DNA of 64,000 nucleotides, from assembly GCA_035546615.1 (NCBI GenBank), contig DASZWM010000005.1:40959-104958 (forward strand). The letters are read 5' to 3'. Origin of the DNA: Minisyncoccota bacterium (GTDB lineage: Bacteria > Patescibacteriota > Minisyncoccia > Phycocordibacterales > SBAW01). A program made the translations under genes and the position numbers. The notes under the pieces were generated by a model. That model had not been told where the DNA came from and ran no database searches. It saw only the letters and a program-made list of their open reading frames with translations. Below, one piece after another: positions 13,683-33,068 of the stretch (positions are counted from its first letter, which is position 1; each line of letters begins with the position of its first letter).

Positions 13683-14354
13683 ATGGAAGGTCCTGCCAAA
13701 CCCAGTAACAACACTAAGGAAAGCTCTCCTAAGCCTTCTGTTGAAGTTGAATCAGAGTTTGCCGAATTCGTGCCACAGGACTTCCTTAATGACCCTGTAG
13801 GATATTTTGAACGTGGAGGAAAGAATATAAAAACAGGAGAAGTTAAATATGATGAGGCTGGTGCGCTTCGTGAGGATCCAACTGCTGTAAAAGATTTACC
13901 AGTCTGGACGAATAGCAATGGAATAGAAATTCTTACGGTAGGAAGAAGGGTAAATACGATTAAGGGCGCTGTAGGAGAATCAGGAGATCCTTTCTACGAG
14001 TACAAAATCCTTGAGAAGCTTATGGAAATCGGGTTACCCGCTGCGAGGCCTATTGCGAAAGCAGAACAGGGCGGTACTCATATCATTGTCATGGAGCGTA
14101 TTCCGGGGGTTAGGTGGTCTGAAAGAGAAAGTCTGAATCTCAAAGAAAAAGGATACTCTGACGAAGACATTGCAACTCTAATAAGTGAAGCAGAACAGAA
14201 AATGGATGGCCTGAAAACTCGCTTTGACGAAGCGGGAGTTATTCGCAGTTGGAAACTGAAGGATATGGTATTTGAGATAGACATTGAGAATAAGAAAGTT
14301 ATTTCTATAGTCCCCACAGATTGGGAAAGGACGAAGATTATTGAAAAGCAATAG
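13683..14354 (+). CDS. Hypothetical protein, possible small atypical protein-kinase-like fold
   Basis: 223-aa ORF in an AT-rich stretch; motifs in kinase order (EYKILEKLMEIGLPAARPI, hinge-like HIIVMERIPG, then DMVFEIDIENKKVISIVPTDWE) resemble RIO/Kdo-type kinases; weak. Confidence 0.3.
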   Translation: MEGPAKPSNNTKESSPKPSVEVESEFAEFVPQDFLNDPVGYFERGGKNIKTGEVKYDEAGALREDPTAVKDLPVWTNSNGIEILTVGRRVNTIKGAVGESGDPFYEYKILEKLMEIGLPAARPIAKAEQGGTHIIVMERIPGVRWSERESLNLKEKGYSDEDIATLISEAEQKMDGLKTRFDEAGVIRSWKLKDMVFEIDIENKKVISIVPTDWERTKIIEKQ

Positions 14355-14405
14355 AGGTTCTAATATCGTGTACTTCTGACCACAGAAGACGTCTTTATTC
14401 AAGTC

Positions 14406-15140
14406 TTGTGCTATAACACTTCCATGGAGCCGACAGTTATATATGAAGACGATTCCGTTATCGTCGTTAACAAGCCATCGGGCCTGCCTGTGCATGCGGA
14501 CGGACGGCATGACCGCGCCACGCTTGTGGACTGGCTCGCCGTGCACTATCCGGAACTCAAAGGAGTGGGGGAGGAGCAGCGGCTCGCCGACGGCACGATA
14601 ATAGACCGGCCCGGCATCGTGCACCGCATCGACCGCGAGACGTCCGGCGTGCTTGTCGTGGCGCGCACGCAGGCGTCTTTTGAGCATTTAAAGGAGCAGT
14701 TCCAGAACAGGGAAGTGAGAAAGGTGTACCGCGCCTTCGTGTACGGCGCCCTTAAAGACGAGCGCGGCACGATAGACAGGCCGATAGGCTCCTCGCGCGG
14801 AGGCCACGGTCCGCGTTCGGCGACGCGCCCGCACGGTGTCATGCGCGAAGCGCAGACGCTCTACCGCGTCATACATAACGGCAAGGACGCCGCATATGTG
14901 GAGGCGTTTCCGAAAACCGGCCGCACGCACCAGATCCGCGTGCATTTCTCCGCCATTCAGCATCCGATAGTAAATGACACTTTGTATGCGCCCAGCCGCA
15001 AGCCGATACTGGGCTTCACCCGGCTCGCGCTCCACGCGTATTCCATCTCCTTTATCCATCCCGACGGGCGGGAGGTCCTTTTTGAGGCTCCGCTGCCGGC
15101 CGATTTTGCCGAAGCCGAGCGGCAATTGCGGGCTAATTAA
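14406..15140 (+). CDS. RluA-family pseudouridine synthase
   Basis: 244-aa ORF; catalytic motif HRIDRETSGVLVVART, PSGLPVH substrate-binding motif; no N-terminal S4 domain; the start may be the downstream Met (MEPTV). Confidence 0.8.
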   Translation: MCYNTSMEPTVIYEDDSVIVVNKPSGLPVHADGRHDRATLVDWLAVHYPELKGVGEEQRLADGTIIDRPGIVHRIDRETSGVLVVARTQASFEHLKEQFQNREVRKVYRAFVYGALKDERGTIDRPIGSSRGGHGPRSATRPHGVMREAQTLYRVIHNGKDAAYVEAFPKTGRTHQIRVHFSAIQHPIVNDTLYAPSRKPILGFTRLALHAYSISFIHPDGREVLFEAPLPADFAEAERQLRAN

Positions 15141-15172
15141 AGCCGTGTTAGAGTGTTCAGGCATTAAATCAT

Positions 15173-15676
15173 ATGAAATCCGCAGTTAAAATCTCTCCGG
15201 TCGACATGGAAGCCCGCGTAGCCCTTGGGGTGCGTCCGGGCGATACTGTCCGTGTCTGGCAGAAGATAGTCGAGCTCAAGAAGGGCAAGGCAGCCAATAA
15301 GAAGGAGGTGACGACGAAAAATGTCCGCCGCCAGGCCTTTGAGGGCCTCGTGCTCGCGGTTAAGCACGGCTCCGAGGCGGGAGGCATGTTCACGGTCCGC
15401 CGGGTCGCTTCCGGCGTAGGTGTCGAGAAGATTTTCCCGCTCTATTCTCCCAATATCGAATCTATCGAGGTACTGCGCCGCACCCGCACCCGCCGCGCAA
15501 AGCTCTACTTCATCCGCGACAAGGCCGCCCGCGACCAGAAGCGCGCGATGCGCAAGGCCCGCGAGTATGTCGCCCCCGCGGCAGCGGCAGCCGACGCCGA
15601 AGTTCCCGCGGAAGAGCCTGTTGTTGAGGCTCCGGCTGCAGAGGAGGCTGCCGCTCCGGAAGTCGCAGCGGAATAA
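15173..15676 (+). CDS. rplS: 50S ribosomal protein L19
   Basis: 167-aa ORF; bL19 core ([12 protein letters not shown]...[12 protein letters not shown]...FTVRRV...[18 protein letters not shown]) with Ala/Glu-rich C-terminal extension. Confidence 0.85.
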
Positions 15677-15734
15677 GAAAACGAGCTCACGCTCGTTTTT
15701 CGTTTTGGCGTTTTCGTTGTAGGTTTATAGACAT

Positions 15735-15818
15735 GCCCAGGTGGCGAAATTGGTAGACGCACTACCTTGAGGTGGTAGCTCCCGCAAGGGATTGGAGGTT
15801 CGAGTCCTCTCCTGGGCA
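15735..15818 (+). tRNA. tRNA-Leu (anticodon GAG)
   Basis: 84-nt class-II tRNA: acceptor gcccagg/cctgggc, anticodon stem ctacc/ggtag with loop ttGAGgt, long variable arm, T-arm ggagg-ttcgagt-cctct. Confidence 0.8.
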
Positions 15819-15827
15819 CAAAAAAGA

Positions 15828-15866
15828 CAGAATAATCTGCCCTGCGGCAGATTATCTGCTTTTTGT
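15828..15866 (+). terminator. Rho-independent terminator after tRNA-Leu
   Basis: 13-bp hairpin cagaataatctgcc-ctgc-ggcagattatctg followed by cttttt. Confidence 0.7.
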
Positions 15867-16020
15867 GAGCCGGAGCGATGTTTCGCGAGTACGCGAAACC
15901 GCGAGGCAGGGTCGTGCGGCCGCATTCGCGACGGCGAATGCGGAACGCCTGACCAAAAGGATTTGTAGATGTGACGCAGACCCTAGATTAAGGGTATTTC
16001 CGACGGTTCCCACGGAGGTC

Positions 16021-16049
16021 TTGACAAAGTACCCGAAAGGGTATACACT
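16021..16049 (+). promoter_or_regulatory. Sigma70-like promoter (TTGACA-17-TACACT)
   Basis: Consensus -35 TTGACA, 17-nt spacer and -10 tacact (a tatact follows); ~330 nt upstream of the TerC-family gene. Confidence 0.5.
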
Positions 16050-16382
16050 ATACTTAGTTGTGAGGGAGCCAGCCTACGGTGTGTCATCGTGCACCGAAGG
16101 TGGGACCGGAAAGTGGCAACCTCGCGCCGGGACGATCGCAAAAGTCCCTTCTGTTCTTTCAGCGCGGAACGCGCAACGTGGTCTACTGTTTAGATGGTCT
16201 TGGGTCGCGAGGAGGTCAAAAATAACCCGCGACACTGCAAAAGTGATTGGCAATCTCAATCATGAAGGACCGTCACACGTAAGAATGGAAAAACCAAGGT
16301 CCTCGGACCAGTGGCCCCCCAGCACAACTGCATTGACAGTTGAGTGGGGGCCTTTTTACATTCAATGTAGTATTCTGTAACA

Positions 16383-17384
16383 ATGAAACTTTTCATCGCC
16401 CCCATCGTCATTTCGTTCATAGCGCTTATCGCCGTATTCCTGTGGGGCGGTACGGCAGCCCTGCTTCTTGCCGCAACGCTGGCGGTGCTCGAAGTGACGC
16501 TTTCTTTCGACAACGCGGTCGTCAACGCGAAGGTGCTCGAGGAAATGGACGCGCGCTGGCAGCGCAGGTTCCTTACCTGGGGCATCATCCTTTCGGTATT
16601 CGGCACGCGCCTGGTGCTGCCGATACTTATCGTCAGCGCCGTGGCATTTACTTCGCCGTTCACCATTACGACGCTGGCCCTCTACGAGCCCGACCAGTAT
16701 TCTGCGCTTCTTACTTCGGCCGAGGCGGCTATCAAGGCGTTCGGCGGCGCATTCCTGCTCATGGTGTCGCTCAAGTATTTCTTCGACGTCGGCAAGAGCG
16801 TGCACTGGTTCGCGCCGCTTGAGCGCCGCTTGTCGCGGTGGGGAAGGGTGGAGGCGATTGAGATCGCTTTGGCGCTCGCCATGCTGCTCGGCATCTCCTA
16901 CGTGTCGCACGACTCGGTTGAGACGATACTCCATGCCGGCATTATCGGCATCATCCTCTTTACGCTGACGGAAGGCATCGCGCACGGCCTCGGGGTGGAA
17001 ACCAAAGGCGCGGTCCGCTCGGGCCTCATGCTCTTCGTCTATCTCAATATCCTCGACTCGGCCTTTTCTCTGGACGGCGTCATCGGCGCGTTCGCGCTCA
17101 CGACCTCGCTCCCGATAATCGTGGCGGGCCTTGGCATCGGCGCGTATTTCGTCCGCTCGCTCACGGTCTACCTGGTACGACAGAAGACGCTTGCGGCGTT
17201 GAAGTACCTGGAGCACGGCGCGCACTGGGCGATATTCGGCCTGGCGCTCTCGATGTTCGCCGGCCTGATAATCCGCGTGCCGGAAGTGGTGATAGCGGGC
17301 ATTGGGCTCGGCTTCATCACGCTTGCGTACATTTCGTCCCGCCGCGCCCTGCGCGCGGACGAAGTGGCCGAGTCGCTCGGCTAG
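16383..17384 (+). CDS. TerC/DUF475-family integral membrane protein
   Basis: 333-aa multi-TM ORF; LSFDNAVVNA motif (TerC-family LSxDNA), repeated internal halves. Confidence 0.7.
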   Translation: MKLFIAPIVISFIALIAVFLWGGTAALLLAATLAVLEVTLSFDNAVVNAKVLEEMDARWQRRFLTWGIILSVFGTRLVLPILIVSAVAFTSPFTITTLALYEPDQYSALLTSAEAAIKAFGGAFLLMVSLKYFFDVGKSVHWFAPLERRLSRWGRVEAIEIALALAMLLGISYVSHDSVETILHAGIIGIILFTLTEGIAHGLGVETKGAVRSGLMLFVYLNILDSAFSLDGVIGAFALTTSLPIIVAGLGIGAYFVRSLTVYLVRQKTLAALKYLEHGAHWAIFGLALSMFAGLIIRVPEVVIAGIGLGFITLAYISSRRALRADEVAESLG

Positions 17385-17428
17385 CCTCATCGCTTCTCCT
17401 TTGGTATATTGACTTCGTTGTTCGATAT

Positions 17429-17502
17429 GGTGGTCGTAGCTCAATCGGTAGAGCCCTGGTTTGTGGTACCAGTTGTTGTGGGTTCGAGTCCCATCGACCA
17501 CC
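17429..17502 (+). tRNA. tRNA-His (anticodon GTG) with genomically encoded G-1
   Basis: Acceptor gtggtcg/cgaccac, extra 5' G (17429) opposite discriminator C, anticodon stem ctggt/accag with loop ttGTGgt, T-arm gtggg-ttcgagt-cccat. Confidence 0.8.
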
Positions 17503-17506
17503 CAAG

Positions 17507-18040
17507 ATGGAGGAATTTAAAAAATCTAAGGAAGCCGCGACAAGGAGCCTCAACCTTGCCGGCACTTTGCAGAAGCTTTTTCGCCCTGTCCTGATTAAAG
17601 GCATGGAGGGCGAAAAAACAGAGGATCCGATAGCTCGAGTAATAGCGGAAGCAGGCCCTAAAAACCTAAGCGATATAGAATCGTATCTTACAGCGCAGAG
17701 CATTGATGCCCTTGCTCCTCTTGAGCACGGCTATGGCTTTAGTGCCGTAGTGCTTGACGCAGGCGATCGGGTGGTGCGCTTAAGCAGACTGAAGCCTACG
17801 CATAAACCCGGTATTCCCCTTGTCCTCCAGCCTCTTGCGGAGGAAATAGTGGGAAAAATTTCTGTGCAGATCTTCAAAAAGCTTCAGACGGCGGGAATTA
17901 CGGACGCCGATGTACAGAATGTTAAGGACCAATTGGGGATGGAAGGGTATAGGTGGGATGACGCCGGTACCGACAACCTTGGGCGGGACGAGAACGGCCA
18001 ACTTTTTATACTCGACGGTTCGGTGCATACACTCGCATGA
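17507..18040 (+). CDS. Hypothetical protein, possible small kinase-like fold
   Basis: 177-aa ORF starting 4 nt after tRNA-His; YGFSAVVLDAGDRVVRLSRL (Gly-loop and Lys-like) ... DAGTDNLGRDENGQLFILDGS (D..N catalytic-loop-like and DFG-like) in kinase order; weak. Confidence 0.3.
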   Translation: MEEFKKSKEAATRSLNLAGTLQKLFRPVLIKGMEGEKTEDPIARVIAEAGPKNLSDIESYLTAQSIDALAPLEHGYGFSAVVLDAGDRVVRLSRLKPTHKPGIPLVLQPLAEEIVGKISVQIFKKLQTAGITDADVQNVKDQLGMEGYRWDDAGTDNLGRDENGQLFILDGSVHTLA

Positions 18041-19236
18041 GCAATGCTCCCATAACCTTCGTTATCTTCGGCGCCACGGGCGATCTGGCTCAGCGCAAGA
18101 TAGTGCCCGCGCTCTGCGCGCTGTACGCAAGCGGGGCGCTTCCTGAAGGCTCAGATATAGTCGCTTTTTCGCGCCGGCCGTGGGGCGACGCGGAGTATCG
18201 CTCCTTCATACAGCCCTCCCTCAAGGCTTTTCCGGAAGAAAAGGCGGTTAAATTCCTGGAGCGTATCCGCTATGTGCAAGGTACGTTCGGCGATCCCGCA
18301 TCGTTCGCTGCATTGAAAGATGCATTACGCACGCAGAATATCTTCTTCCACCTCGCAGTCCAGCCTGAGTTTTACGAATCCATCGTGCATGGGCTGGGGG
18401 ATGCGGGCTTGCAGGGCTCGCTCCTTATCGAGAAGCCGTTCGGCCACAACTACGCCTCCGCCGCATCGCTTGAGCGAGGTCTTGAGAAGTACTTTTCGCC
18501 CGAGCATATTTTCCGCGTCGATCATTACTTGGGGAAGGAAGGACTCGAGGTGCTTCTGAATCGCCGCCGCACGGATGCCGATTTTGAAAAGTCACTAAGC
18601 AGCGAGCGCATCGCGTCCGTCGCGGTCCGCCTGCTTGAGACGTTCGACGTAGAGGGTAGGGGAGAGTTCTACGACGCGGCGGGCGCGCTTAAGGACGTGG
18701 GCCAAAATCATCTGCTTGAGATGCTCGCGACACTTCTTATGAATATTCCGGAAGATGCTCGCGGCATTCCGCAGGCGCGCGCTGAAGCGATAGCGGGACT
18801 GGCCCCGAAGATGTCCGTTCAGGGGGCGGTGGCTGCCGTGCGCGGCCAATACGAGGGGTACCATGCCGATCCGGAAATTCCGGACGGCTCGCAAACGGAA
18901 ACGTATTTTAAAGTCGAATTGCGCAGCGCAATTCCGCGCTGGCAGGATGTCCCGCTCGTGCTTGAAGCGGGGAAAGCCCTGCGCGAAAAGAAAAGCGATA
19001 TCGAGATCTCATATAAGGACGGCTCGAAGCAGGTATTCGACATGGATATCCCCGGCGCGCGCGACGCATACGAGCACATGATAGAAGCGGCACTGCGCGG
19101 CGACGCGACGCGCTTTGCCGGAAGCGAAGAAGTGTTCGCCGCGTGGAAGCTTATCGACCCGCTGCGGGAGCAGCTCCTGAAATTGCCGCTTCACAGGTAC
19201 GACCGCGGCGGCGACGGCGCGGGGCGGTTTTTGTAA
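18037..19236 (+). CDS. zwf: Glucose-6-phosphate 1-dehydrogenase (short form)
   Basis: 399-aa ORF; NADP-binding FVIFGATGDLAQRKIVPAL, substrate motifs EKPFGHNYASA and RVDHYLGKE. Confidence 0.8.
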   Translation: MSNAPITFVIFGATGDLAQRKIVPALCALYASGALPEGSDIVAFSRRPWGDAEYRSFIQPSLKAFPEEKAVKFLERIRYVQGTFGDPASFAALKDALRTQNIFFHLAVQPEFYESIVHGLGDAGLQGSLLIEKPFGHNYASAASLERGLEKYFSPEHIFRVDHYLGKEGLEVLLNRRRTDADFEKSLSSERIASVAVRLLETFDVEGRGEFYDAAGALKDVGQNHLLEMLATLLMNIPEDARGIPQARAEAIAGLAPKMSVQGAVAAVRGQYEGYHADPEIPDGSQTETYFKVELRSAIPRWQDVPLVLEAGKALREKKSDIEISYKDGSKQVFDMDIPGARDAYEHMIEAALRGDATRFAGSEEVFAAWKLIDPLREQLLKLPLHRYDRGGDGAGRFL

Positions 19237-19253
19237 AGTGATACAATTGCCGC

Positions 19254-19661
19254 ATGCCTATGCTGCCGAAGCCCAAAACCAAGCTTGAAGAGATAGCGCT
19301 CGGCTTTACCAGCTGGGTAGGGTCCATCCAGTCGGTCGCGGTGCATACCGTCGCCTTCGTCGCGAGCTTCCTGGCGGTGGCGTTCGACCTCATTACCTTC
19401 GACCGGATGCTCCTCGTGCTCACCACCGTAGTGTCGCTTGAAGCAATTTATCTCGCCATATTCATACAGATGAGCCTCAACCTGACGCGCGAAAGCCTGG
19501 CGGAGGTTGAGCAGGACATAGACGAGATCCAGGAGGACGTGGGCGAAATTCAGGAGGATGTCGACGAGATACAGCAGGACGTCGATGAGATCCAGGAAGA
19601 CGTTGACGAGATACAGGAGGAAATAGTAGAAGAGGAGGATGGAGAATCGGCGCATGCTTAA
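19254..19661 (+). CDS. Membrane protein (DUF1003-like) with acidic heptad-repeat tail
   Basis: 135-aa ORF; two TM helices, then five tandem 7-aa repeats D[IV][DG]EIQ[EQ]. Confidence 0.5.
   Translation: MPMLPKPKTKLEEIALGFTSWVGSIQSVAVHTVAFVASFLAVAFDLITFDRMLLVLTTVVSLEAIYLAIFIQMSLNLTRESLAEVEQDIDEIQEDVGEIQEDVDEIQQDVDEIQEDVDEIQEEIVEEEDGESAHA
19515..19619 (+). repeat. 5 x 21-nt tandem repeat (coding DIDEIQE heptads)
   Basis: gacatagacgagatccaggag / gacgtgggcgaaattcaggag / gatgtcgacgagatacagcag / gacgtcgatgagatccaggaa / gacgttgacgagatacaggag. Confidence 0.7.
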
Positions 19662-20079
19662 GGAAAAGGTCGGCGGCTTTTTTTCGGAGTTCAGGAACTT
19701 CGCCGTCAAAGGCAACGCCTTCGACCTCGCGGTCGCGGTCGTCATCGGCAACGCCTTTACCGCCATCGTGAACTCGCTCGTGGGCGACATCATCACCCCC
19801 TTCCTCGGGCTCGTGACCGGGAATGTTGACTTCAAGAGCCTCTCGTATGCGGTCCGGCCCGACCTCGTCATAAAATACGGCGCGTTCATCCAGGCGATAT
19901 TCAATTTCCTGCTCATTTCGCTGTCGATATTCGTCGTTTTCAAGCTGCTCTCGGTCGCGCGCAGAAAGGTCTTCCGCGAAGGGGAGAAGGCGGTGCCGGA
20001 GCACGAAAAGCCCGCTCAGGAGCGCCTCCTTGAGGAGATCCGCGACCTTTTGAAGGAAAAGAAGGAGGAAGTGGTATAG
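19639..20079 (+). CDS. mscL: Large-conductance mechanosensitive channel MscL
   Basis: 146-aa ORF; FREFAVKGNAFDLAVAVVIGNAF signature; the start is probably the downstream Met (MLKEK). Confidence 0.85.
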   Translation: MENRRMLKEKVGGFFSEFRNFAVKGNAFDLAVAVVIGNAFTAIVNSLVGDIITPFLGLVTGNVDFKSLSYAVRPDLVIKYGAFIQAIFNFLLISLSIFVVFKLLSVARRKVFREGEKAVPEHEKPAQERLLEEIRDLLKEKKEEVV

Positions 20080-20086
20080 TTAGCGC

Positions 20087-20776: not shown

Positions 20777-20819
20777 CAGGATAGCTATTAGTTATTAATG
20801 TTTTTTATAATCACTACGT

Positions 20820-21978: not shown

Positions 21979-22039
21979 TAATTAGCTACTTGGGTGTAGC
22001 CACTAGTCGCTATACCCCAAACCCTAACACCTAACTAAT

Positions 22040-24363: not shown

Positions 24364-24366
24364 ACC

Positions 24367-24408
24367 AATATCGCCCGTCCCGGAACCCGGGACGGGCGAT
24401 ATTTTTTA
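24367..24408. terminator. Bidirectional terminator between convergent genes
   Basis: 16-bp perfect hairpin atatcgcccgtcccgg-aac-ccgggacgggcgatat followed by tttttt. Confidence 0.75.
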
Positions 24409-26520
24409 GACGGCTGCAACAGGATTTCTTTCGACGATATCCTGGGTGCCGCGCTTGTAGTTGAAGCGGTCTTCGCTTGAGTCTATGTGGAGTATTAATC
24501 CTTCGCTCTTCAATTCCCGAAGCATAAGCGCGCCGATGTTCTGGGAAATAACGCGGAGCGTTGGATGTACGGAAATGCCCGAACGCAGCTCGACGACAAA
24601 GGCTAGCGCGGGCAGGTCGCCGGTAATGCGGCAGGCAACCTGGTATCCCATCGGGACATAATACTGGGCTAGGGTAGGGGACAGATTCAGCCTCTCGAGG
24701 CCTGCAACGTAGCGGGCGAGAAAAGCTTTCGCCTCGTCCGCGAGCTGTTGCGGTACCTGGCTGAAGTACCATTCGCCGAACCCGTGCTTCGTCGTCAGAA
24801 GCGGCATCCGCTGGGTGATGGAACGATGCCGGTGCAGGTCGCGGAACGAGCCGAAGTCGAGCGGAAACGAGAACTGCATCCCTCCGGCTTCCGCAAGGAA
24901 TTTCGGCAGCTCCGCTTTTGCGGGGCGGCTGTCCAGGATATGGCGATGCTTCTGGAGCAGTCGCGGTTCCACGGTATTCCGCAGCAGAAGAACATTTCCG
25001 TATCCGGCCTTCGAGCCATTAAGGGTCGGTTCTGCTTCAGCGGAATAGTAGTACGCATTCTGCATCCACTCTTCGACGTATTCTTCCTGTGCAGAGTAGC
25101 GCTTAGCGAAGCCGGAATTCGGATACTTCTCCATTAGCGCTTCGCCCACCGCATTTGCGATATCGCGCACTTCTGCAAGCGGATGATGGCGCAGGCGCAG
25201 GAGATGGTCGGAAGCGTGCCGCAGCTCGGTATGCCACGCGAGGTTCGTTGCGGCGCCGGCAGGCAGGAATCCCCGCATGATATCGAACGCGCGGGCATTG
25301 ATGGCCTTCTGCCAAACCTTCTCGTCCTCATCAGTTTGGCGCGGATGGCGCTTGGCGAGCTCTTCCTTCATGGTTTCGAGCCCATTCAGATGGAATGCGC
25401 GCAGCGATTCAAGGAGCTCTGCGCCCTCTGGGGAGTTGTGCGGATTGCCGAACGCCTGTTTGGAGAAGTCGATGTAACGAGTCGAGGATTCCTGCCCATT
25501 GTAGAGCTGGGAGTCTTGTACCGCTTTCGCCGCGAGCATCGACACTCCTTCTATAAAGATGGTCGCCGTGCCGTCATCGCCGATGGATTTGTCGCCGTAA
25601 CCGACATAGTAGGTCTGCATGAAATCTTGGGCGCCCCGCTTGGCAAGCCTGATCAGGTGCGCATCTATGCCGCCCAGGGAGCGCGAATGAAGTGCTTGAA
25701 GCATTGCATCTTCCTCAGCATTGATGATAGCGCCGGTGTCGAGTACGACTACCTGCCCGTTTCCTGGGAGCGGCTTGCGTACGTGTTTCAGGTCTTCGTA
25801 TTTTGTAGCAGTTCCTTTTTGTACTTGTTCCTGCGCGGGTGCGGCGCGTTGTCCGATGTCGCGATCAAGGTAGAGGCGGGGGAGCATCTGCTCAGGGGTC
25901 CAGCTGCTTTTTACCTCTTCAAGGTTCGTGCTGACCTGATATTTGCCGCTCTTGGTGTAATCGGACTGTAGAATAGGCCCGGTCTCGAAGAAGATGATCT
26001 GCGCGATGCGGCGGCCGACCACAAGCGGAATGATGTAATTCTTGGAGTTGTTGGTTATCTCCATCGTCCAGCGGTTGACGTATCCGACGTCGCCCCAGCC
26101 GGCACATTTGCACACTTCTATGAAGTTGCGGCCCATGCTTGAGCGCGCCTTCATCATCGTCGTGATATGGTCGCGCCCGCCGATGAACTCGTTCGTATGC
26201 GCGAGGATGGTTTCGCCGGGCCGCAGGATGATGACCTTGTCCTCCGGGCTGATGCCGTCCCACTCAAAGTTATATTTTTCGAACGCTTCCTTCGCGGGTA
26301 CCGCCCGCTCCACCTTAGAGGCGCCCCACACATGCTCCATGTGCGCGCGGCTCCAGATGTTGTAGAGGCTGTGATTGTACTTGGTCGGCTGCTCGCGGAA
26401 GAAATGCTCCCCGAGCGTCACGTCGTAGGAAGAAGTGGCAAGATTTTCCCGCTTGAACGGCTCTATAATGACGGAGCCTTCCTGCATCGCTTCGAGGATT
26501 TTCTTGTCCGATAGTGCCAT
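24406..26520 (-). CDS. Fusion protein: dCTP deaminase-like domain + two tandem ThyX (flavin-dependent thymidylate synthase) domains
   Basis: 704-aa ORF. Residues 1-190 are Dcd/dUTPase-fold (LSDKKILEAMQEGSVIIEP; KARSSMGRNFIEV...GWGDVGYVNRWTMEITNNS). Residues ~230-480 are ThyX-like and keep the S.RY motif (ESSTRYIDF) but have QDSQ in place of RHR. Residues ~480-704 are ThyX-like with the RHR motif (FRDLHRHRSITQ) but no S.RY. Both halves keep the ThyX C-terminal helix pattern (AR..LP....T..W..N.R.L.HFL.LR). Confidence 0.6.
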   Translation of the reverse strand: MALSDKKILEAMQEGSVIIEPFKRENLATSSYDVTLGEHFFREQPTKYNHSLYNIWSRAHMEHVWGASKVERAVPAKEAFEKYNFEWDGISPEDKVIILRPGETILAHTNEFIGGRDHITTMMKARSSMGRNFIEVCKCAGWGDVGYVNRWTMEITNNSKNYIIPLVVGRRIAQIIFFETGPILQSDYTKSGKYQVSTNLEEVKSSWTPEQMLPRLYLDRDIGQRAAPAQEQVQKGTATKYEDLKHVRKPLPGNGQVVVLDTGAIINAEEDAMLQALHSRSLGGIDAHLIRLAKRGAQDFMQTYYVGYGDKSIGDDGTATIFIEGVSMLAAKAVQDSQLYNGQESSTRYIDFSKQAFGNPHNSPEGAELLESLRAFHLNGLETMKEELAKRHPRQTDEDEKVWQKAINARAFDIMRGFLPAGAATNLAWHTELRHASDHLLRLRHHPLAEVRDIANAVGEALMEKYPNSGFAKRYSAQEEYVEEWMQNAYYYSAEAEPTLNGSKAGYGNVLLLRNTVEPRLLQKHRHILDSRPAKAELPKFLAEAGGMQFSFPLDFGSFRDLHRHRSITQRMPLLTTKHGFGEWYFSQVPQQLADEAKAFLARYVAGLERLNLSPTLAQYYVPMGYQVACRITGDLPALAFVVELRSGISVHPTLRVISQNIGALMLRELKSEGLILHIDSSEDRFNYKRGTQDIVERNPVAAV

Positions 26521-26570: not shown

Positions 26571-26650
26571 TGATTATATAATTGCGAAGCAATTCTATAC
26601 GGTATAGTGTGTTTCGGGAGTACTATACCACTGTGGAGAGGGGAACAAGT

Positions 26651-27289
26651 ATGGACAAACGCGGAAAATTTATCGTAATTGACGGCATGGACGGCTCCGG
26701 CAAGGGGACGCAGATAAAACTGCTCCAGGAGCGGCTTGCGGACAAGGGCGTGCTCTTCACTCGGGAGCCGGGCGGCTCGCCGCTTGGAGAGGAGATCCGG
26801 GAGATATTATTGAGGACCGAAGGAAATTCGCGCGGCCCGTTAGCGGACCTCTTTCTCTTCTTCGCGTCGCGGGCGTCGCATGTGGAGGATACCGTTACGC
26901 CGGCGCGCGAGCGCGGTACGCACGTCATAAGCGACCGGTACGCTTCCTCTACCTACGCCTTCCAGGCCTACGGGGAAGAGAAGCGCGAATTGCTGCCGCT
27001 TTTTGATGCGGTCATGCATTCGCTCGACCGGGCGAAGTACTGGCCGGACCTCTATCTCATCCTCGACCTTCCCGGCGAAATGGCCTACGAGCGCAGAAGG
27101 AAGGATGCCGCGCAGGCGAAAAGCGGTTTTGATCTCAAGCCGCTCGCATACCATGAGCGCACGCGAGAAGGCTTTAAGGCGTTCGCCAAAAGCTACGGTC
27201 CGGTCGAATTTGTCGACGCGAGCCGTAGCCCTCAGGAAATCCATGCCGATATCTGGAACATTGTCGCTCCCATGGTAGGATTTAAATAA
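26651..27289 (+). CDS. tmk: Thymidylate kinase
   Basis: P-loop FIVIDGMDGSGKGTQ, DRY-like SDRYASSTYAFQ; the start is chosen at MDKRGKF inside the longer listed ORF. Confidence 0.85.
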   Translation: MDKRGKFIVIDGMDGSGKGTQIKLLQERLADKGVLFTREPGGSPLGEEIREILLRTEGNSRGPLADLFLFFASRASHVEDTVTPARERGTHVISDRYASSTYAFQAYGEEKRELLPLFDAVMHSLDRAKYWPDLYLILDLPGEMAYERRRKDAAQAKSGFDLKPLAYHERTREGFKAFAKSYGPVEFVDASRSPQEIHADIWNIVAPMVGFK

Positions 27290-27339
27290 TATGATCTAGC
27301 GCGCTCAGAGACCGACTTACTTAGCTAACCGATATACCA

Positions 27340-28608
27340 ATGGATCTCTACGACGCTATACAAAAACAGGATAAGGACGTCTTCGCCACGCTTGAGGGCG
27401 AGGAAACGCGCGAGCGGGAAGGGCTTGAGCTCATTCCTTCCGAGAATTACGTTTCAAAAGCGGTGCGCCAGGCGCAGGGCTCGATATTCACCAACAAATA
27501 TTCCGAAGGATATCCCGGAAAGCGCTACTACGGCGGACAGACGTACACCGACCAGGTTGAGACGATAGCTATCGAGCGCGCCAAGCAATTGTTCGGCGCC
27601 AAATTCGCCAACGTGCAGACGCACTCGGGCGCCAACGCCAACATCGCGATGTACATGGCCTTGCTGCAGCCGGGGGACACGGTACTGGGTATGGATCTCA
27701 GCCACGGCGGGCATCTGACCCATGGCCACCCGGTTACCTATATCACCAAGTTCTTCAACTTTGTGCGCTATAAGATGAAGGACCCGGAAACCGGTGAGAT
27801 AGATTACGACGACATGCGGCGGGTGGCGCTTGAGGCCAAACCCAAGATAGTGCTGGCCGGATACTCGGCGTACTCCCGCGAGCTCGACTACGAAAAGATT
27901 TCTGCAATAGCAAAAGAGGTCGGCGCGTACGCGGTCATGGATGCGGCGCATATCGCGGGCCTTATTGCCGGCGGCGTTGCGAAAAATCCGTTCGACTACG
28001 GCTTCGATATCATTACTTCAACTACGCATAAGACTTTGCGCGGCCCTCGCGGCGGGCTCATCCTGACGCGCGAGTCCGAAGACATTGCCAAAAAAGTGGA
28101 CAAGGCGGTGTTTCCGGGTCTCCAAGGCGGCCCCTTGATGCACGTGATAGCGGGAAAGGCGGTCGCCTTCGGCGAGGCGCTTTCTCCGAAGTTCAAAGTG
28201 TATGCGGCGCAGATACTCAAGAACGCCAAAGCGATGGAAGAAGTATTTCGTGCTGCCAATGTGCGCATGCTCGGCGGCGGCACATCTAACCACCTTATTC
28301 TCGCCGATGTGTTCGGCAGCCTCGGCATCCCCGGGAAAGAAGCGGAAGTTTTGCTCGACCGCGTGGGCATCACGCTTAACAAGAATGTCATCGCAGATGA
28401 CACGAGGAACCCCATGGACCCGTCCGGCATTCGCTTCGGCACACCGGCCATAACGACGCGCGGGTTCAAGGAAGGGGAGTCCGCCCGCGTAGCCGAGCTT
28501 ATGCTTGAGGCTATGAAGAATCGCACTGATGAAGCGAAGCTCGACGCTATCCGCGAGGAGATAAAGGACCTCTGCGCGAAATTCCCGATTCCGGACTCGT
28601 TCGTATAA
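27340..28608 (+). CDS. glyA: Serine hydroxymethyltransferase
   Basis: 422-aa ORF; SHMT motifs LELIPSENY, YSEGYPGKRYYGG, PLP-Lys region TTHKTLRGPRGG. Confidence 0.9.
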   Translation: MDLYDAIQKQDKDVFATLEGEETREREGLELIPSENYVSKAVRQAQGSIFTNKYSEGYPGKRYYGGQTYTDQVETIAIERAKQLFGAKFANVQTHSGANANIAMYMALLQPGDTVLGMDLSHGGHLTHGHPVTYITKFFNFVRYKMKDPETGEIDYDDMRRVALEAKPKIVLAGYSAYSRELDYEKISAIAKEVGAYAVMDAAHIAGLIAGGVAKNPFDYGFDIITSTTHKTLRGPRGGLILTRESEDIAKKVDKAVFPGLQGGPLMHVIAGKAVAFGEALSPKFKVYAAQILKNAKAMEEVFRAANVRMLGGGTSNHLILADVFGSLGIPGKEAEVLLDRVGITLNKNVIADDTRNPMDPSGIRFGTPAITTRGFKEGESARVAELMLEAMKNRTDEAKLDAIREEIKDLCAKFPIPDSFV

Positions 28609-28880
28609 AATCGTGCTACAGTAGCAATCGGACGCTCTTCGAGTCACTTCTTCCAGACTAGCCTTAGGCCATCTTGGCCTCATCGATATGGCTTGGGAGC
28701 GTCCGCTTTCCGCAACAGCAAGGGAGTATGTGACATGAAAGGTCACGTCCGTCACCTCGTGATCTAGGCGGCGCTTAGCGCACTCTGCGGCCTTGGGCCG
28801 CGATCACACCCGCCGTCGGTTTATGTCTGAACCGGCAAAACCCTTCTAGACTAAGAAAGGTCTCCGCTTCAGTCGTTATC

Positions 28881-28916
28881 GGCCCGCTCCTCCCCGGAGC
28901 GGGCCGGCGTTTTTTA
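28881..28916 (+). terminator. Strong rho-independent terminator ~270 nt downstream of glyA
   Basis: Hairpin ggcccgctcc-tcccc-ggagcgggcc followed by ggcgtttttt. Confidence 0.7.
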
Positions 28917-28932
28917 TCTGTACAATAGAGGA

Positions 28933-30054
28933 ATGGTCATCCGCTCCGGATTTCATCGCCTCATCGAACTATGGGAGCGCTATGAGCGGCCGCTCGCGGC
29001 CGGTTCGCTCATCATTGGCTTCATATTCGACCTGTTCATCGCGCGCAGGCCGGACAACGTGTTCAACAACATCCTCCTGCTCACGTACCTCTTCATTGCG
29101 GCGGCGCTCATACTCATCCTCAATATCCGCACGTACCGCCGCAAGAGCGAGGAGCCTGAAGCAACGCCGCTCTTCCTCCTGCTTGTGCTCCAGTTCTGCT
29201 TCGGAGGCCTGGCCTCCAACATGCTGGTGCTGTACGGCAAAAGCGGCACCTTCGCGGGCTCCGCGCTTTTTCTCCTGCTCCTGCTCGGCATGCTCATAGG
29301 CAACGAGTTTTTGAAGTCCCGCTACGCGCAGCTGCGCTTCAATATCGTCATCTACTACACCCTGCTCCTGACCTACTGCATCATCGCGGTGCCGACGTTC
29401 CTGCTGCACTCGGTCGGCACGCTCGTGTTCCTCGCAAGCGGCGTCCTAAGTCTCATTCTCATTGCGGGCTTCCTGTCGCTTGTGTACGTCATTATCTTCC
29501 GCGGCCGCGACCGCATCGCGCACCTGTACGAAGTGTCGATCCTGGTCGGGCTCGTGTTCCTTTTCTACAACCTCCTCTACTTTATGAACATCATCCCGCC
29601 CGTGCCGCTCTCGCTTCGCGACATCGGCGTGTACCACTCCATTACTCGCCTGCCCACTTCCGCGGGCAGCGAGCAGGGGATATATTCCGCCACGTACGAA
29701 AAGGCGCCGTGGTACGAGTTCTGGCGCAGCACAAGCCCGACCTACACCGTATTCTCCTCCGGAGAGGCCGCATGCTTCTCGTCCGTCTTCGCGCCCACCA
29801 ACCTGTCCGCTCCCATTTACCACCGCTGGGAAAAGCATAACGACGAGAAGAACACCTGGGCCACGGCGGCGCGCATCTCGTTCGACATAAGCGGCGGACG
29901 CGACGCCGGGTATCGCGGATTCACGACAAGCGCCGTCAGCCCCGGCCGCTGGCGCTGCGACGTGGAAACCGAAGGCGGCGCGCTCATCGGCAGGACCTCC
30001 TTCACCGTCGAGTCGGCCTCGACGACCCCCGCGCTTTCGACAAAAACCCTCTAG
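28933..30054 (+). CDS. Membrane protein with C-terminal soluble domain (DUF2914-like)
   Basis: 373-aa ORF; 5-6 TM helices, then a C-terminal ~130-aa domain (YHRWEKHNDEKNTWATAARISFDISGG...RWRCDVETEGG). Confidence 0.5.
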   Translation: MVIRSGFHRLIELWERYERPLAAGSLIIGFIFDLFIARRPDNVFNNILLLTYLFIAAALILILNIRTYRRKSEEPEATPLFLLLVLQFCFGGLASNMLVLYGKSGTFAGSALFLLLLLGMLIGNEFLKSRYAQLRFNIVIYYTLLLTYCIIAVPTFLLHSVGTLVFLASGVLSLILIAGFLSLVYVIIFRGRDRIAHLYEVSILVGLVFLFYNLLYFMNIIPPVPLSLRDIGVYHSITRLPTSAGSEQGIYSATYEKAPWYEFWRSTSPTYTVFSSGEAACFSSVFAPTNLSAPIYHRWEKHNDEKNTWATAARISFDISGGRDAGYRGFTTSAVSPGRWRCDVETEGGALIGRTSFTVESASTTPALSTKTL

Positions 30055-30073
30055 ACGCGGCTTCTGTAGTCTA

Positions 30074-30102
30074 TTGACTTTTAATATATTTGGGTGTATA
30101 AT
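30074..30102 (+). promoter_or_regulatory. Consensus sigma70 promoter (TTGACT-17-TATAAT)
   Basis: -35 ttgact 30074-30079, 17-nt AT-rich spacer, perfect -10 tataat 30097-30102; ~50 nt upstream of the 30155 ORF. Confidence 0.6.
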
Positions 30103-30154
30103 AATAGAGGTACTAAATCGCCCAGTTTTTTGGGCTTGAACAGGGAACCTTCTC

Positions 30155-30736
30155 ATGCAGACAAACGTAATACACACGTCCCGGGGTCCCAAGACTCCGG
30201 GCGAAGCGCGGCTGCTCTTCGTGGGGGGTGCGCTGAACAACGGCGACTTGCTGGGGATCATCAGCGGTCTTGCTGCCATCAAGAACACGGGCGGCGAAGC
30301 GTACGAGGTCGCCCGGTACGTTCTTACGCGCAAGGACCAGTACCGCGACAACATCGTCGCCAAGGCTCGCGAGATTCTCGGTCTGTCCGAAGCCGCGCCG
30401 GCGGCCAAGACTGGGCCACAGCGCGTCGAGGGCCAGAAGCACCTGGAGCAACTGGTCCAGGACGTCAAGCCGGGCATGCAGTTGCGTATGCGCTTCAAGC
30501 AGAACGGCTTCGCCGGCCTCACCTACCTCAGCGGCATGGAGATGGGGGGTGTCATTGAAATCTCCAACGACAAACGGATTCTGATGCAGGTAGCCAATCA
30601 AACCCGCGACTGGGGCAACTCTGATCAGAACCGTACCCTGACGGTCAGGGTCGCTCACAGTTTCAAGCCGACCTGGTTCAGCCAGCGCCTCTACCGTGAG
30701 ATCGAGACCATCGAAATCCTGCCGGCGGTCGGCTAG
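30155..30736 (+). CDS. Hypothetical protein (orphan, own promoter and terminator)
   Basis: 193-aa soluble ORF; no recognisable motifs; flanked by the consensus promoter and the 30758-30792 terminator. Confidence 0.5.
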   Translation: MQTNVIHTSRGPKTPGEARLLFVGGALNNGDLLGIISGLAAIKNTGGEAYEVARYVLTRKDQYRDNIVAKAREILGLSEAAPAAKTGPQRVEGQKHLEQLVQDVKPGMQLRMRFKQNGFAGLTYLSGMEMGGVIEISNDKRILMQVANQTRDWGNSDQNRTLTVRVAHSFKPTWFSQRLYREIETIEILPAVG

Positions 30737-30757
30737 GTTCGTTCGCGCAGTTCGACT

Positions 30758-30792
30758 CAACTGGCTCCAGCAATGGAGCCAGTCTTCTTTTT
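30758..30792 (+). terminator. Rho-independent terminator
   Basis: Hairpin ctggctcca-gcaa-tggagccag followed by tcttcttttt. Confidence 0.7.
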
Positions 30793-30816
30793 ATATATAC
30801 GGTATTCTGCTACTCT

Positions 30817-32463
30817 TTGTGCATGATCCGTGAGGCATTAGAGAAGGCTATCGCCGCGGCGCTGGGAGAACTCGGCGCCGGCAGTGTTTCGTTTACCGTA
30901 GAGCGCCCGGGCTCCATGGACCATGGCGACTACGCCACCAACGCGGCGCTTGCCGCGGCAAAAGCGCTCAAGAAGAACCCGAAAGAAGTGGCGCAGATGC
31001 TGCTGACCATGCTCAGCAGCATCGAGGGCATAAAAAAAACAGAAATCGCGGGCGCGGGATTCATAAACTTTTTTATTTCGCGCGAAGCGGTTGCAAAAGA
31101 AATCTCGCGCGCCGCGCAGGACGCGGAGTGGGGAAGCAACAGTTTGTATAAAGGAAAGACGGTGATGGTGGAATATACCGACCCGAATCCGTTCAAGGAG
31201 TTCCATATTGGGCATCTGATGAGCAACGCGATAGGCGAGAGCGTTGCGCGAGTACTTGAAATCTCCGGCGCAAAAGTTATCCGCGCTAACTACCAGGGCG
31301 ATGTAGGGCCGCATGTGGCAAAGGCTATCTGGGGAAAGATGCAGAAGCCGGAATTAAGCTGGGGCGAAACGTATGTGCTCGGCAACGCCGAATATGAAGC
31401 GCATAAGGCGGATATCGATATGATCAACAAGCAGGTCTACGAGAAAAGCGACGACAAGGTCGCTGAGCTATATGCCGCGGGACGCAAGCTTTCGCTGGAG
31501 CACTTTGAAGAGCTGTATACAGCGCTCGGCACGAAATTCGACCGTTACTTTTTTGAAAGCGAGACGACGCCCCTAGGCACGGCTCTTGTAAAAAAGCATC
31601 CCGAGCTGTTCGTGGAAAGCGAGGGGGCAAGGGTATTTCGCGGCGAGGAAGAGGGGTTGCATACCCGCGTTTTTATCACTTCGCAGGGCTTGCCGACGTA
31701 TGAAGCGAAGGACCTCGGACTTCTGGACGTAAAGAGCAAAGAGAAGCTCGACGTGTCCATCACCGTTACCGCGAACGAGCAGAACGAGTACTTTAAGGTA
31801 GTTCTTGCGGCTGCCGCGCATATCGCGGAACTTGCGGAGATAGCCGGAAAGACGAAGCACGTCTCGCACGGCATGATGCGCTTCGCCGAGGGCAAAATGT
31901 CCTCGCGCAAGGGGAACGTGATCACCGGCGAGTCGCTCTTGGAAGACCTTAAGGACGCCGCGAAAGAAAAGATGGAGGGCAGGGAACTGGCGGATGCCGA
32001 AAAGACTGCCGAGGCGGTTGCGGTGGGAGCGATAAAGTATTCGGTGCTCAAGCAGGGAAGCGGTCGCGACATTATATTCGACCCGGAGAAGTCGCTGAGC
32101 CTCGAAGGCGACTCGGGACCGTATATACAGTACGCGCACACCCGCGCGCTGTCGCTGCTTAAGAACGCCGGCCGCGAAGGCGTTGAACCAGGAACGGATG
32201 ACAAGCCTGCTGCAGCAAATGCGCTCGAGCGGCTTATTCTGCATTTTCCAGACGTGCTTTCCCGCGCAGCGCAAGAGTTGGAGCCGCATCACATAACGAC
32301 GTACGTTACGGAACTCGCTTCAACGTTCAACAGCTGGTACGCGAGCGAGCGGATTATCGGCGGCACCAATCCGCAGTACGGAATTCTCATCGCGCAGGCG
32401 GTGGAAGCGACGCTCAAAAAAGGCCTGCATGCGCTTGGCATCCCAGCGCCCGAGGAGATGTAA
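30817..32463 (+). CDS. argS: Arginyl-tRNA synthetase
   Basis: 548-aa ORF; class I HIGH (FHIGHLMSNAIGES), KMSK-like GKMSSRKG, ArgRS N-terminal add-1 domain pattern. Confidence 0.9.
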   Translation: MCMIREALEKAIAAALGELGAGSVSFTVERPGSMDHGDYATNAALAAAKALKKNPKEVAQMLLTMLSSIEGIKKTEIAGAGFINFFISREAVAKEISRAAQDAEWGSNSLYKGKTVMVEYTDPNPFKEFHIGHLMSNAIGESVARVLEISGAKVIRANYQGDVGPHVAKAIWGKMQKPELSWGETYVLGNAEYEAHKADIDMINKQVYEKSDDKVAELYAAGRKLSLEHFEELYTALGTKFDRYFFESETTPLGTALVKKHPELFVESEGARVFRGEEEGLHTRVFITSQGLPTYEAKDLGLLDVKSKEKLDVSITVTANEQNEYFKVVLAAAAHIAELAEIAGKTKHVSHGMMRFAEGKMSSRKGNVITGESLLEDLKDAAKEKMEGRELADAEKTAEAVAVGAIKYSVLKQGSGRDIIFDPEKSLSLEGDSGPYIQYAHTRALSLLKNAGREGVEPGTDDKPAAANALERLILHFPDVLSRAAQELEPHHITTYVTELASTFNSWYASERIIGGTNPQYGILIAQAVEATLKKGLHALGIPAPEEM

Positions 32464-32465
32464 CT

Positions 32466-33068
32466 ATGAAAATACTTGGCCGAGGCTGGCAATATACTAC
32501 CTACGATATAGGAAATGGTCGCGTGCTTAAAAAGTATAATTCGTTCCTAGTAGCTTATGCGGTAATGCTCAATGCCTGTGTCAAATCAGATAGGCTTTCG
32601 ATTTTTAAAATTCCGCAATACCACAGAGGCTGTAAAGAATTTGCACGAAGCTCTCTAAAGAAAGCGACCAGTGGCCTGCTTGATAGTTGGATGGTTGGCA
32701 ATCCAAAGCCGCTAAATGAATTGGATTACGAACAAGACAAGCTCATTCCGCTCCATGAACGCATCAACGGAATTAGTTTAGAAAAGGCAAAAGGGTATAT
32801 TGACCGTTTTGTTGATTTCAATAAAACTCTTTTGGAGAGAGGTCTCATCGACAAAAGTTTTAATATTACTAAGAACTTCGGCATAGATTCCGAAGGAAGG
32901 ATTGTTTTGATGGATCTTGGTGAATTGCACTCAGAAAAGCTAGCTATAGAAAAACAACGACGTAAACGGATGTGGACGTACCCATATGTAGTAAATTGCA
33001 TCTTAGATGAGGAAGTACGTGCCTACTATGTTCAGCGGATGGACGAAAGCTTTGGATTAGCCGCATAG
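32466..33068 (+). CDS. Hypothetical protein, small atypical protein-kinase-like (AT-rich islet)
   Basis: 200-aa ORF, markedly AT-richer than neighbours; Gly-loop-like LGRGWQYTTYDIGNGRVLKK, catalytic-loop-like LIDKSFNITKNFGID, DFG-like RIVLMDLGE. Confidence 0.35.
   Translation: MKILGRGWQYTTYDIGNGRVLKKYNSFLVAYAVMLNACVKSDRLSIFKIPQYHRGCKEFARSSLKKATSGLLDSWMVGNPKPLNELDYEQDKLIPLHERINGISLEKAKGYIDRFVDFNKTLLERGLIDKSFNITKNFGIDSEGRIVLMDLGELHSEKLAIEKQRRKRMWTYPYVVNCILDEEVRAYYVQRMDESFGLAA

Follow-up and report, generated by a model that had tools for sequence, protein, structure and literature searches.

Three hypothetical proteins of a Patescibacteria genome as probable, separately derived and C-terminally truncated members of the protein-kinase-like superfamily

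Background

Are three small open reading frames (ORFs) with kinase-like motifs, scattered along one piece of a Patescibacteria genome, really kinases, and do they belong together? The window discussed here, by which we mean the whole stretch of 64,000 nucleotides that was analysed (positions 40,959 to 104,958 of contig DASZWM010000005.1, assembly GCA_035546615.1), holds three such ORFs on the + strand, referred to below as A (13683-14354, 223 aa), B (17507-18040, 177 aa) and C (32466-33068, 200 aa). In GenBank they are deposited as the hypothetical proteins VHD55_02420, VHD55_02450 and VHD55_02535 of a metagenome-assembled genome (MAG) of Candidatus Paceibacterota (Patescibacteria, or candidate phyla radiation, CPR), a group whose genomes are small and full of unannotated genes. 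An initial annotation made from the sequence had located the same ORFs, as the ORF list and the translations confirm, and had interpreted them as minimal kinases of a single acquired and expanding family.

Results and discussion

Three truncated kinase-like proteins

We conclude, with a probability of about 0.8, that A, B and C are real genes whose products belong to the protein-kinase-like (PKL) superfamily, were derived independently of one another and are truncated at the C-terminus. Many full-length homologs under purifying selection exist for each of the three, and the invariant columns of each family alignment are the motif residues. The kinase-like reading put forward at the outset holds for C by its match to the AceK kinase domain and for A and B by their predicted structures, where the high-confidence models match kinase-like folds and no others. 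Chance resemblance, with a fortuitous order of motifs and with some of the ORFs either not adopting a kinase fold or not being genes, might be read into the empty database results (none of the three window proteins gave a match when scanned directly with Pfam and NCBIfam, and PHROGs and PADLOC returned nothing for them); it is already contradicted by the selection, the invariant motif columns, the models and the AceK match, and we give it practically no credence.

The metal-binding Asp is present in all three proteins and invariant in each family (D213 within DWE in A, D170 within DGS in B, D150 within DLGE in C). At the position of the Lys of strand beta3, C has the invariant K22, B has Arg in 69 of 72 sequences and Lys in the other 3, and A has R88/R89 in the strand, with an invariant K94 five residues further on. 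A Gly-rich loop is found as an invariant GxGWQY in C and as GxGxS in B (G77 in 72/72), its place being taken in A by an EDPTA turn. The catalytic D-x4-N motif fits in B (D152-x4-N157); C has the Asn, N137, with D129 at -8 and not at -5, and A is without the motif and carries Trp190 at the position of the Asp.

Past the metal-binding Asp, 10 residues remain in A, 7 in B and 50, forming an AceK-like tail, in C. It follows that the activation segment and the entire helical C-lobe are missing from A and B; an activation segment and subdomains VIII-XI were found in none of the three, so that the proteins are indeed, as first noted, too short for canonical kinases. What each protein would retain is the N-lobe that binds ATP, the hinge and the two loops for catalysis and metal binding; what it would lack is the activation segment together with the helical C-lobe, on which protein substrates normally dock. 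Lacking this docking lobe, the three most likely act on small molecules or on targets that a partner holds in place.

Several observations weigh against this conclusion. The kinase assignment of A and B depends on predicted structures, their support from sequence matches is weak, and residue roles in both were mapped by the order of secondary-structure elements in the models, not by coordinates; the assignment of C draws on sequence profiles. In addition to the empty scans mentioned above (C of the window, taken alone, matches no Pfam model), no Pfam model matches B or 51 B relatives (ABC1, at 0.003, is weak), and in a comparison of the B-superfamily profile with the PDB the best match is TkArkI at E 0.04, the rest being noise. 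The best, weak Pfam matches in A are RIO1 in 12 of 34 members (best E 0.011) and APH (6e-4) in a few. B, with Arg at the position of the beta3 Lys, could be inactive, and the term kinase is not assured for A, as this protein lacks the catalytic Asp and the Gly-rich loop. As clues to function the neighbours offer little: none are conserved for A, and for C there is only the order argS-C-ileS in a subset of genomes, the neighbourhood not being conserved otherwise.

As a description, the initial annotation was right about the ORFs, the tRNA genes and the motifs of C and B, and misassigned those of A; as an interpretation, its minimal kinase-like fold stands and its single acquired, expanding family falls. 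A, B and C are new, unannotated and extremely truncated members of a well-known superfamily, A being the most unusual of them in both active site and genomic behaviour. With three hypothetical proteins placed in the kinase-like superfamily, a lineage regarded as poor in regulatory machinery gains putative enzymes of ATP-dependent modification, and A and B illustrate how far the kinase fold can be trimmed, with nothing left beyond the metal-binding loop. None of this overturns current understanding. The features on which the argument draws are collected in Table 1.

Table 1. Positions within the window of ORFs A, B and C, their motifs and adjoining elements
Feature	Position	Strand	Remark
tRNA-Val(tac), discriminator base 4 nt (CACT) before A ATG	13606..13678	+	ARAGORN; Rfam RF00005, 71 bits
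ORF A, 223 aa: conserved N-terminal extension (~19-60) and truncated PKL core (~62-223)	13683..14354	+	
A, invariant segment K94-E106	13962..14000	+	candidate ATP-anchoring basic residue past beta3; E106 as putative alphaC Glu
A, hinge M137-E138-R-I-P-G142 (IVMERIPG), RIO/Bud32/Kdo type	14091..14108	+	M137, E138, G142 invariant; after strand 132-138
A, catalytic-loop position R188-S-W190-K-L-K-D194	14244..14264	+	between helix 160-183 and strand 195-200 of the model
A, D213-W-E215, DFG-equivalent, DWE/DFE type of aminoglycoside/choline kinases and ArkI	14319..14327	+	follows strand 205-211
Weak terminator-like hairpin after A, CTTCTG-ACCA-CAGAAG with T-rich tail	14373..14388	+	consensus scan; no more than chance
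tRNA-His(gtg), discriminator base 4 nt (CAAG) before B ATG	17430..17502	+	tRNA search and sequence
ORF B, 177 aa: N-terminal helices and truncated kinase core, ending 7 residues past D170	17507..18040	+	
B, Gly loop G75-Y-G77-F-S through beta3 V-V-R91-L	17729..17779	+	Arg at VAIK Lys position
B, catalytic loop Y148-R-W-D-D152-A-G-T-D156-N157, canonical D-x4-N	17948..17977	+	D152, D156, N157 each 69/72
B, D170-G-S, DFG-equivalent, 13 residues past N157 as in eukaryotic-type kinases	18014..18022	+	D170 72/72, G171 67/72
Shine-Dalgarno-like GAGGAG, 8 nt before C start, within argS end	32452..32457	+	sequence
argS stop codon	32461-32463	+	ArgRS assigned by Pfam
ORF C, 200 aa, pI 9.2	32466..33068	+	AceK-type core without AceK regulatory domain
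C, Gly loop G5-R-G7-W-Q-Y...Y13 to V20-L-K22 (ATP-anchoring Lys)	32478..32531	+	family invariants
C, catalytic loop D129-K-S-F-N-I-T-K-N137	32850..32876	+	N137 aligns with Asn of AceK KNFG (HMMER, hhalign)
C, D150-L-G-E153, metal-binding DFG-equivalent	32913..32924	+	aligns with AceK YDYDE; D150, G152, E153 invariant

Three families and not one

The claim that A, B and C are paralogues of one minimal-kinase family, recently acquired and expanding in this genome, can call on the PKL fold or motifs common to all three and on a GC content below that of the neighbours in every case (42.6% in A, 50.9% in B and 40.6% in C, in a window of 56.7%). GC at third codon positions (GC3) is 0.37 in A and 0.40 in C, the three ORFs spanning 0.37-0.52 against 0.69-0.80 in the flanking housekeeping genes. 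Two of the ORFs do lie directly after tRNA genes, as had been remarked, with tRNA-Val(tac) before A and tRNA-His(gtg) before B. Furthermore, hhalign pairs the expected loops of C and B over short segments, the N..D loop with a probability of 23% and the Gly loop plus beta3 with 31%, R91 of B being aligned to K22 of C.

However, when the three are aligned pairwise, the similarity is insignificant, with BLASTP E-values of at least 0.047 (single comparisons), hhalign probabilities of at most 31%, and no more than 3% when A is set against either of the others. Their closest relatives are also distinct (AceK for C, modules of polyvalent proteins for B, none for A), as are their catalytic motifs and N-terminal architectures. 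Hidden Markov models (HMMs) of all three families detect no further copy in the window, and C follows the GC of its hosts and lies in conserved synteny. The three are therefore separate families and not paralogues; their descent from one expanding family is already contradicted, and we regard it as very unlikely.

C resembles the catalytic core of AceK

Judged by its sequence, C consists of an AceK-type kinase core standing by itself, and its catalytic set is complete (Gly loop, K22, D129/K130, N137, D150). Its homologs form 113 clusters, all from Patescibacteria, and share the invariant residues G7, W8, Q9, Y13, V20, K22, Q90, N137, D150, G152 and E153, with D129 and K130 nearly invariant; the motif strings quoted in the initial annotation all come from C and agree with these invariants. 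The Pfam model PF06315 (AceK_kinase) is matched by 27 of 47 members of the family, with a best E of 7.7e-7. AceK is also the best PDB match of the family profile (E 0.02, over the catalytic and metal-binding loops), and hhalign aligns the family to residues 414-522 of E. coli AceK at 77% and E 2e-5, including the segment past the metal-binding Asp.

Homology to AceK thus extends over the hinge, alphaE, the catalytic loop with the Asn of KNFG, the metal-binding Asp and the segment after it, and C has a Gly loop and an ATP-anchoring Lys as well. Unlike AceK, which has 578 aa, C has 200 and begins at the Gly loop, and hence the AceK regulatory domain (roughly the first 310 residues) is absent; the candidate catalytic Asp lies 8 residues before the Asn and not 5, and the family is confined to Patescibacteria. 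Since C, like B, keeps all the phosphotransfer residues, we predict that it is an active ATP-dependent phosphotransferase.

The AT-rich patch after argS in which C had been noticed is real and sharply bounded (40.6% GC against 56-60% in the neighbours), and it is poor evidence of recent acquisition here. Over 62 loci the GC of C lies on average ~5.5 points below that of the flanks and tracks host GC closely (r = 0.90), and the order argS-C-ileS recurs in at least four genomes (the window and loci L059, L066 and L069), C following pth or standing alone at other loci. As the low GC is mostly family-wide and the gene order is shared, C is not a recent insertion at this site. It would be mainly vertically inherited, and its translation would be coupled to that of argS through an ordinary Shine-Dalgarno sequence. 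A scan of IMG/VR produced no relatives of C, and the fusion partners of C, like those of B, contained no informative Pfam domains.

Downstream of C in the window (33101-36532, + strand) is the gene for a class I IleRS-like aminoacyl-tRNA synthetase of 1143 aa, which is found also at L059 (4623-7922). A histidine-phosphatase domain (His_Phos_1) is inserted at residues 497-659 of this protein, between the halves of the catalytic domain. C stands directly upstream of the IleRS-like gene in the window, L059, L066 and L069, the phosphatase insert being confirmed in the window and in L059 only.

B as a stand-alone copy of a module of polyvalent proteins

B is a free-standing copy of the truncated kinase module carried by giant polyvalent proteins of conjugative plasmids and phages. 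An exhaustive HMM search collected 501 relatives, many of which are a ~160-residue module within proteins of 1,000-5,500 aa, co-occurring there with ArdC-N, MPTase-PolyVal, Toprim, ART-PolyVal, Zeta_toxin, SLT and KfrB domains. Among Burkholderia plasmids, 109 (94 of which are conjugative) carry the module beside TraG, as part of 'zeta toxin family proteins', and relatives occur on 2 IMG/VR contigs. The motifs first described for B proved genuine and conserved, with GxGxS, VVR91L and D152-x4-N157-x12-D170-G seen across 72 sequences that include domains of giant proteins. Its model has strands at residues 70-76, 80-84 and 88-93 and no alphaC helix between beta3 and beta4, and conserved N-terminal helices (D40-P-x-A) precede the Gly loop.

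The kinase domains of polyvalent proteins were reported to have lost the whole C-terminal subdomain while keeping the active site (Iyer, Burroughs, Anand, de Souza, Aravind 2017, PMC5512222), and B shows this loss, the retained active site and the residence in polyvalent proteins. As with the relatives of B, conjugative elements and phages encode the published domains as parts of giant multidomain proteins, where ArdC-N, MPTase-PolyVal, ART-PolyVal, Toprim and zeta-toxin domains are their partners, and stand-alone versions exist too; in both cases additional residues separate the H/Y position from the catalytic Asp (in B three, between Y148 and D152). In contrast to them, the B family does not show the conserved Glu before strand 2, has Arg in place of the beta3 Lys, and at position 121, corresponding to the 'conserved Gln' of the last N-lobe strand, has Glu in 56 and Gln in 12 of 72 sequences. 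B fits the published description in outline; with no Pfam match and with the signatures of the clade partly seen, it is a candidate member of that clade.

We predict from the conserved motifs that B is an active ATP-dependent kinase. It would derive from the mobile-element gene pool, and it connects a free-living CPR genome with the stock of effector modules found in conjugative plasmids and phages.

At two other CPR loci (L061 and L062, 4001-8531) the homolog of B runs into the start of an M23 peptidase gene, and the gene for a protein of >1,280 aa comes next; upstream lie genes for a DUF2726 protein and for the S subunit of a type I restriction-modification system, in what looks like a mobile-element neighbourhood. 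In the window, the stop codon of B overlaps the start of a glucose-6-phosphate dehydrogenase gene (ATGA, 18037-18040), which implies a tRNA-His-B-zwf transcription unit with translational coupling.

A lacks the catalytic Asp

A is a Patescibacteria-only family without a Pfam model. In the predicted structure a strand at residues 85-89 holds R88/R89 and a helix spans residues 105-116. An invariant Trp190 replaces the Asp of HRD, an invariant Asp194 lies near the position of the catalytic-loop Asn (R-G/S-W-K-L-K-D across the family), and P211, D213, W214, E215, R216 and T217 form an invariant run. The fold had been called correctly at the outset and the motifs had not: where a Gly-rich loop was read, the beta1-beta2 turn is the invariant EDPTA, and D200..N203, taken for the catalytic loop, belongs to the beta7-beta8 hairpin of the model.

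The invariant metal-binding Asp, Glu and Lys together with the hinge argue for nucleotide binding, and the missing catalytic Asp leaves three options, namely a non-canonical transferase, an ATPase or a pseudokinase. Most likely, as far as conservation can tell, A would still bind nucleotide, as a non-canonical transferase or a pseudokinase. It is possible, though on balance unlikely, that A is strictly a pseudokinase, nucleotide-binding or purely structural, with no transferase activity and with a regulatory or scaffolding role. The invariant Trp at the catalytic-Asp position, the lack of a Gly-rich loop and the Asp in place of the catalytic-loop Asn would fit such a role, and the extensive, highly conserved N-terminal extension could provide an interaction surface. 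Yet the metal-binding Asp, the Glu following it, K94, E106 and D194 are all invariant, which would be unusual for a dead site, and, as ArkI demonstrates, an enzyme can be catalytically active without the HRD Asp.

The archaeal kinase ArkI produces 2'-phospho-U47 in tRNA and has HGQ in place of HRD and a DFE metal motif (PMC9095486). A, possibly along with B, might accordingly be taken for an ArkI-type RNA or tRNA kinase, the linkage to tRNA genes then reflecting function. ArkI (COG2112; PDB 7vnx, 8yv5) is, like A, a small PKL enzyme without the HRD Asp and with a D-aromatic-E metal loop (HGQ and DFE, to be compared with the Trp and DWE of A; PMC9095486). Like B, it has an N-terminal helix before the Gly loop, and TkArkI, the best PDB match of the B-superfamily profile named above, is matched over these two elements; A, in its turn, is strongly linked to tRNA genes. 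On the other hand, ArkI works with a basic patch, whereas A and B have low isoelectric points (pI 5.0 for A and 5.3 for B, with medians of 5.25 and 4.78 in their families), and they lack everything past the metal-binding loop, including the ArkI subdomains IX and XI and the basic YKR helix for tRNA binding. H130, Q132 and K137 of ArkI have no counterparts in the R-x-W-K-L-K-D of A, there is no significant sequence match to ArkI, and the A profile, which finds only noise in the PDB, matches no ArkI sequence there. Linkage to tRNA genes is equally well explained by horizontal insertion beside conserved tRNA sequence, and starts abutting tRNA genes are general in these genomes. With the D-aromatic-E of A as the one trait in common, neither A nor B belongs to ArkI by these comparisons, and we consider an ArkI-type function quite improbable. 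Whatever its chemistry, A joins ArkI as a conserved kinase-fold family without a catalytic Asp.

The suggested likeness to RIO, Kdo and Bud32 kinases is borne out in part: RIO1, RIO2, Bud32 and WaaP are among the structure matches, while the RIO1 sequence match is below threshold and the WaaP and WaaY alignments of A are insignificant. RIO1/RIO2, Bud32 and Kdo/WaaP are small PKL proteins without an activation loop, and A has a hinge of the IVMExIxG type; unlike A and B, they keep HxD-x4-N and ~40-60 or more residues past the metal-binding Asp. Against E. coli WaaP and WaaY, hhalign aligns the expected hinge and DFG segments of both A and B without significance (at most 3% for A, the alignment to the WaaY hinge included). 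With RIO1 at E 0.011, these WaaP/WaaY values and a Trp for the catalytic Asp, A falls outside the RIO/Bud32/Kdo-WaaP group. APH (PF01636, aminoglycoside/choline kinase) offers a parallel to A in its 'IDWE', matching the D-W-E, and A is acidic and spread as a single horizontally transferred gene; unlike A, APH has Brenner's motif HxDxxxxN with its essential Asp and a helical substrate-binding C-terminal subdomain.

Longer forms of A, of 361-536 aa and with extra N- or C-terminal regions, are encoded at L035 (3986-5572) and L038 (3986-5593) and include the proteins P0163, P0196 and P0186. Pfam searches of the extra regions of these long forms (528 and 536 aa in L035/L038) gave nothing significant, with a sub-threshold DUF6886 in P0163.

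Association of A with tRNA genes, and its probable mobility

A was followed over 54 loci from GTDB species representatives, all of them MAGs and most labelled as Patescibacteria lineages; 5 of the 54 are labelled Gammaproteobacteria, which we take as mislabels. A same-strand tRNA gene lies no more than 500 bp upstream of A in 25 of these 54 loci, and no more than 300 bp upstream in 20 of the 48 with enough upstream sequence. Counted over the loci and the window there are nine tRNA identities, among them Ser (four standard anticodons), Ala, Trp, Ile, Leu, Asp and His, with Val in the window. Compared with the remaining tRNAs and genes of the same loci, the odds ratio is ~10-fold (Fisher p ~6e-11); the counts include related genomes, and the loci are not all independent. 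Adjacency to tRNA, first seen at a single site, is thus a conserved and statistically strong property of the A family.

Acquisition, which had been proposed for all three genes, is upheld for A by the composition of the gene. The correlation between gene and flank GC is 0.48 (0.90 for C), and the anomaly is confined to the gene and goes in both directions, with 44% in a 28.5% background (L005), 33% in 55% (L042) and 43% in 57% (the window). This decoupling from host GC indicates horizontal transfer. Positions 538-4669 of L042 and 13417-17503 of the window are syntenic for tRNA-Arg, tRNA-Val, an rluA-like gene, rplS and tRNA-Leu; in L042 rluA directly follows tRNA-Val, with no A there, and A is located after tRNA-His, in the slot that B occupies in the window. 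A search of GenBank phages with tblastn and a scan of IMG/VR found no A relatives.

We suggest that A travels horizontally as a unit of one gene and has come to lie immediately 3' of tRNA genes time and again. Homology-facilitated recombination anchored in conserved tRNA sequence is a plausible, if speculative, route. A position after tRNAs combined with uncoupled GC makes A a clean case for the movement of single genes without classical integrative elements. It may even be that A is a self-contained mobile gene unit of Patescibacteria, moving across very different GC backgrounds and captured or targeted just 3' of tRNA genes, whose tRNA-mRNA co-transcript would be processed to a near-leaderless mRNA and whose Trp-for-Asp product would perform a non-canonical chemistry (ArkI-like RNA or tRNA phosphorylation, nucleotidylation or inactivation of cationic small molecules); taken as a whole, this scenario appears improbable to us.

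A classical tRNA-targeting island was considered for A and rejected, there being no duplicated tRNA 3' end, no att-like repeat and no integrase nearby. One MAG (CAXUAR01; L020 and L053) holds two divergent A paralogues, with 77% and 53% identity to A of the window, one after tRNA-Ala and the other after tRNA-Ser.

Expression of A and B

Only 4 nt separate each tRNA from the ATG of A or B, which leaves no room for a promoter or a Shine-Dalgarno sequence of their own, and for want of such a promoter A and B would be transcribed with the upstream tRNA. Processing of the tRNA 3' end in the read-through transcript would then yield a near-leaderless mRNA with a 4-nt leader. This model of read-through and processing, which we derive from the arrangement of the sequence, is in line with the placement of terminators: in the window, terminator hairpins come after other tRNAs, strong ones standing behind tRNA-Arg(tct) (13487-13513), tRNA-Leu(gag) (15824-15866) and tRNA-Arg(ccg) (1004-1026), and tRNA-Val and tRNA-His run straight into A and B without such a hairpin. 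Promoter and terminator scans around A and B returned no more sites than expected by chance.

An arrangement of this kind is not peculiar to A and B. In the collected CPR loci, an ORF of 100 aa or more begins within a few nucleotides of 12 of the 89 tRNAs, 5 of these ORFs being unrelated genes. Abutting starts are found in the window at 13679-13685 and 17503-17509 and in L016, L030, L042, L060, L084, L098, L110, L114 and L119. They are common in these genomes and, for that reason, not specific to the kinases described here; this suggests that tRNA-punctuated, near-leaderless mRNAs are a general feature of the Patescibacteria loci collected. One of the unrelated tRNA-abutting genes begins MIILGIETSCDETALAL….

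A conserved 5' leader hairpin upstream of A (GGCATG-ACCCA-CATGCC) was rejected as a general element, being present in a few close relatives only. At the loci of a set of close A relatives (L005-L009, L012, L017, L021 and L055) a spacer of ~40 nt between differing tRNA-Ser genes and the ATG of A is conserved; it includes this hairpin in some of them and no Shine-Dalgarno-like sequence.

A further gene of the window

Apart from the three ORFs, the window encodes on its - strand (24406-26520) a 703-aa protein that combines a dCTP-deaminase-like region (residues 2-178) with a ThyX (Thy1) domain (residues 300-467), beside the genes for thymidylate kinase and SHMT.

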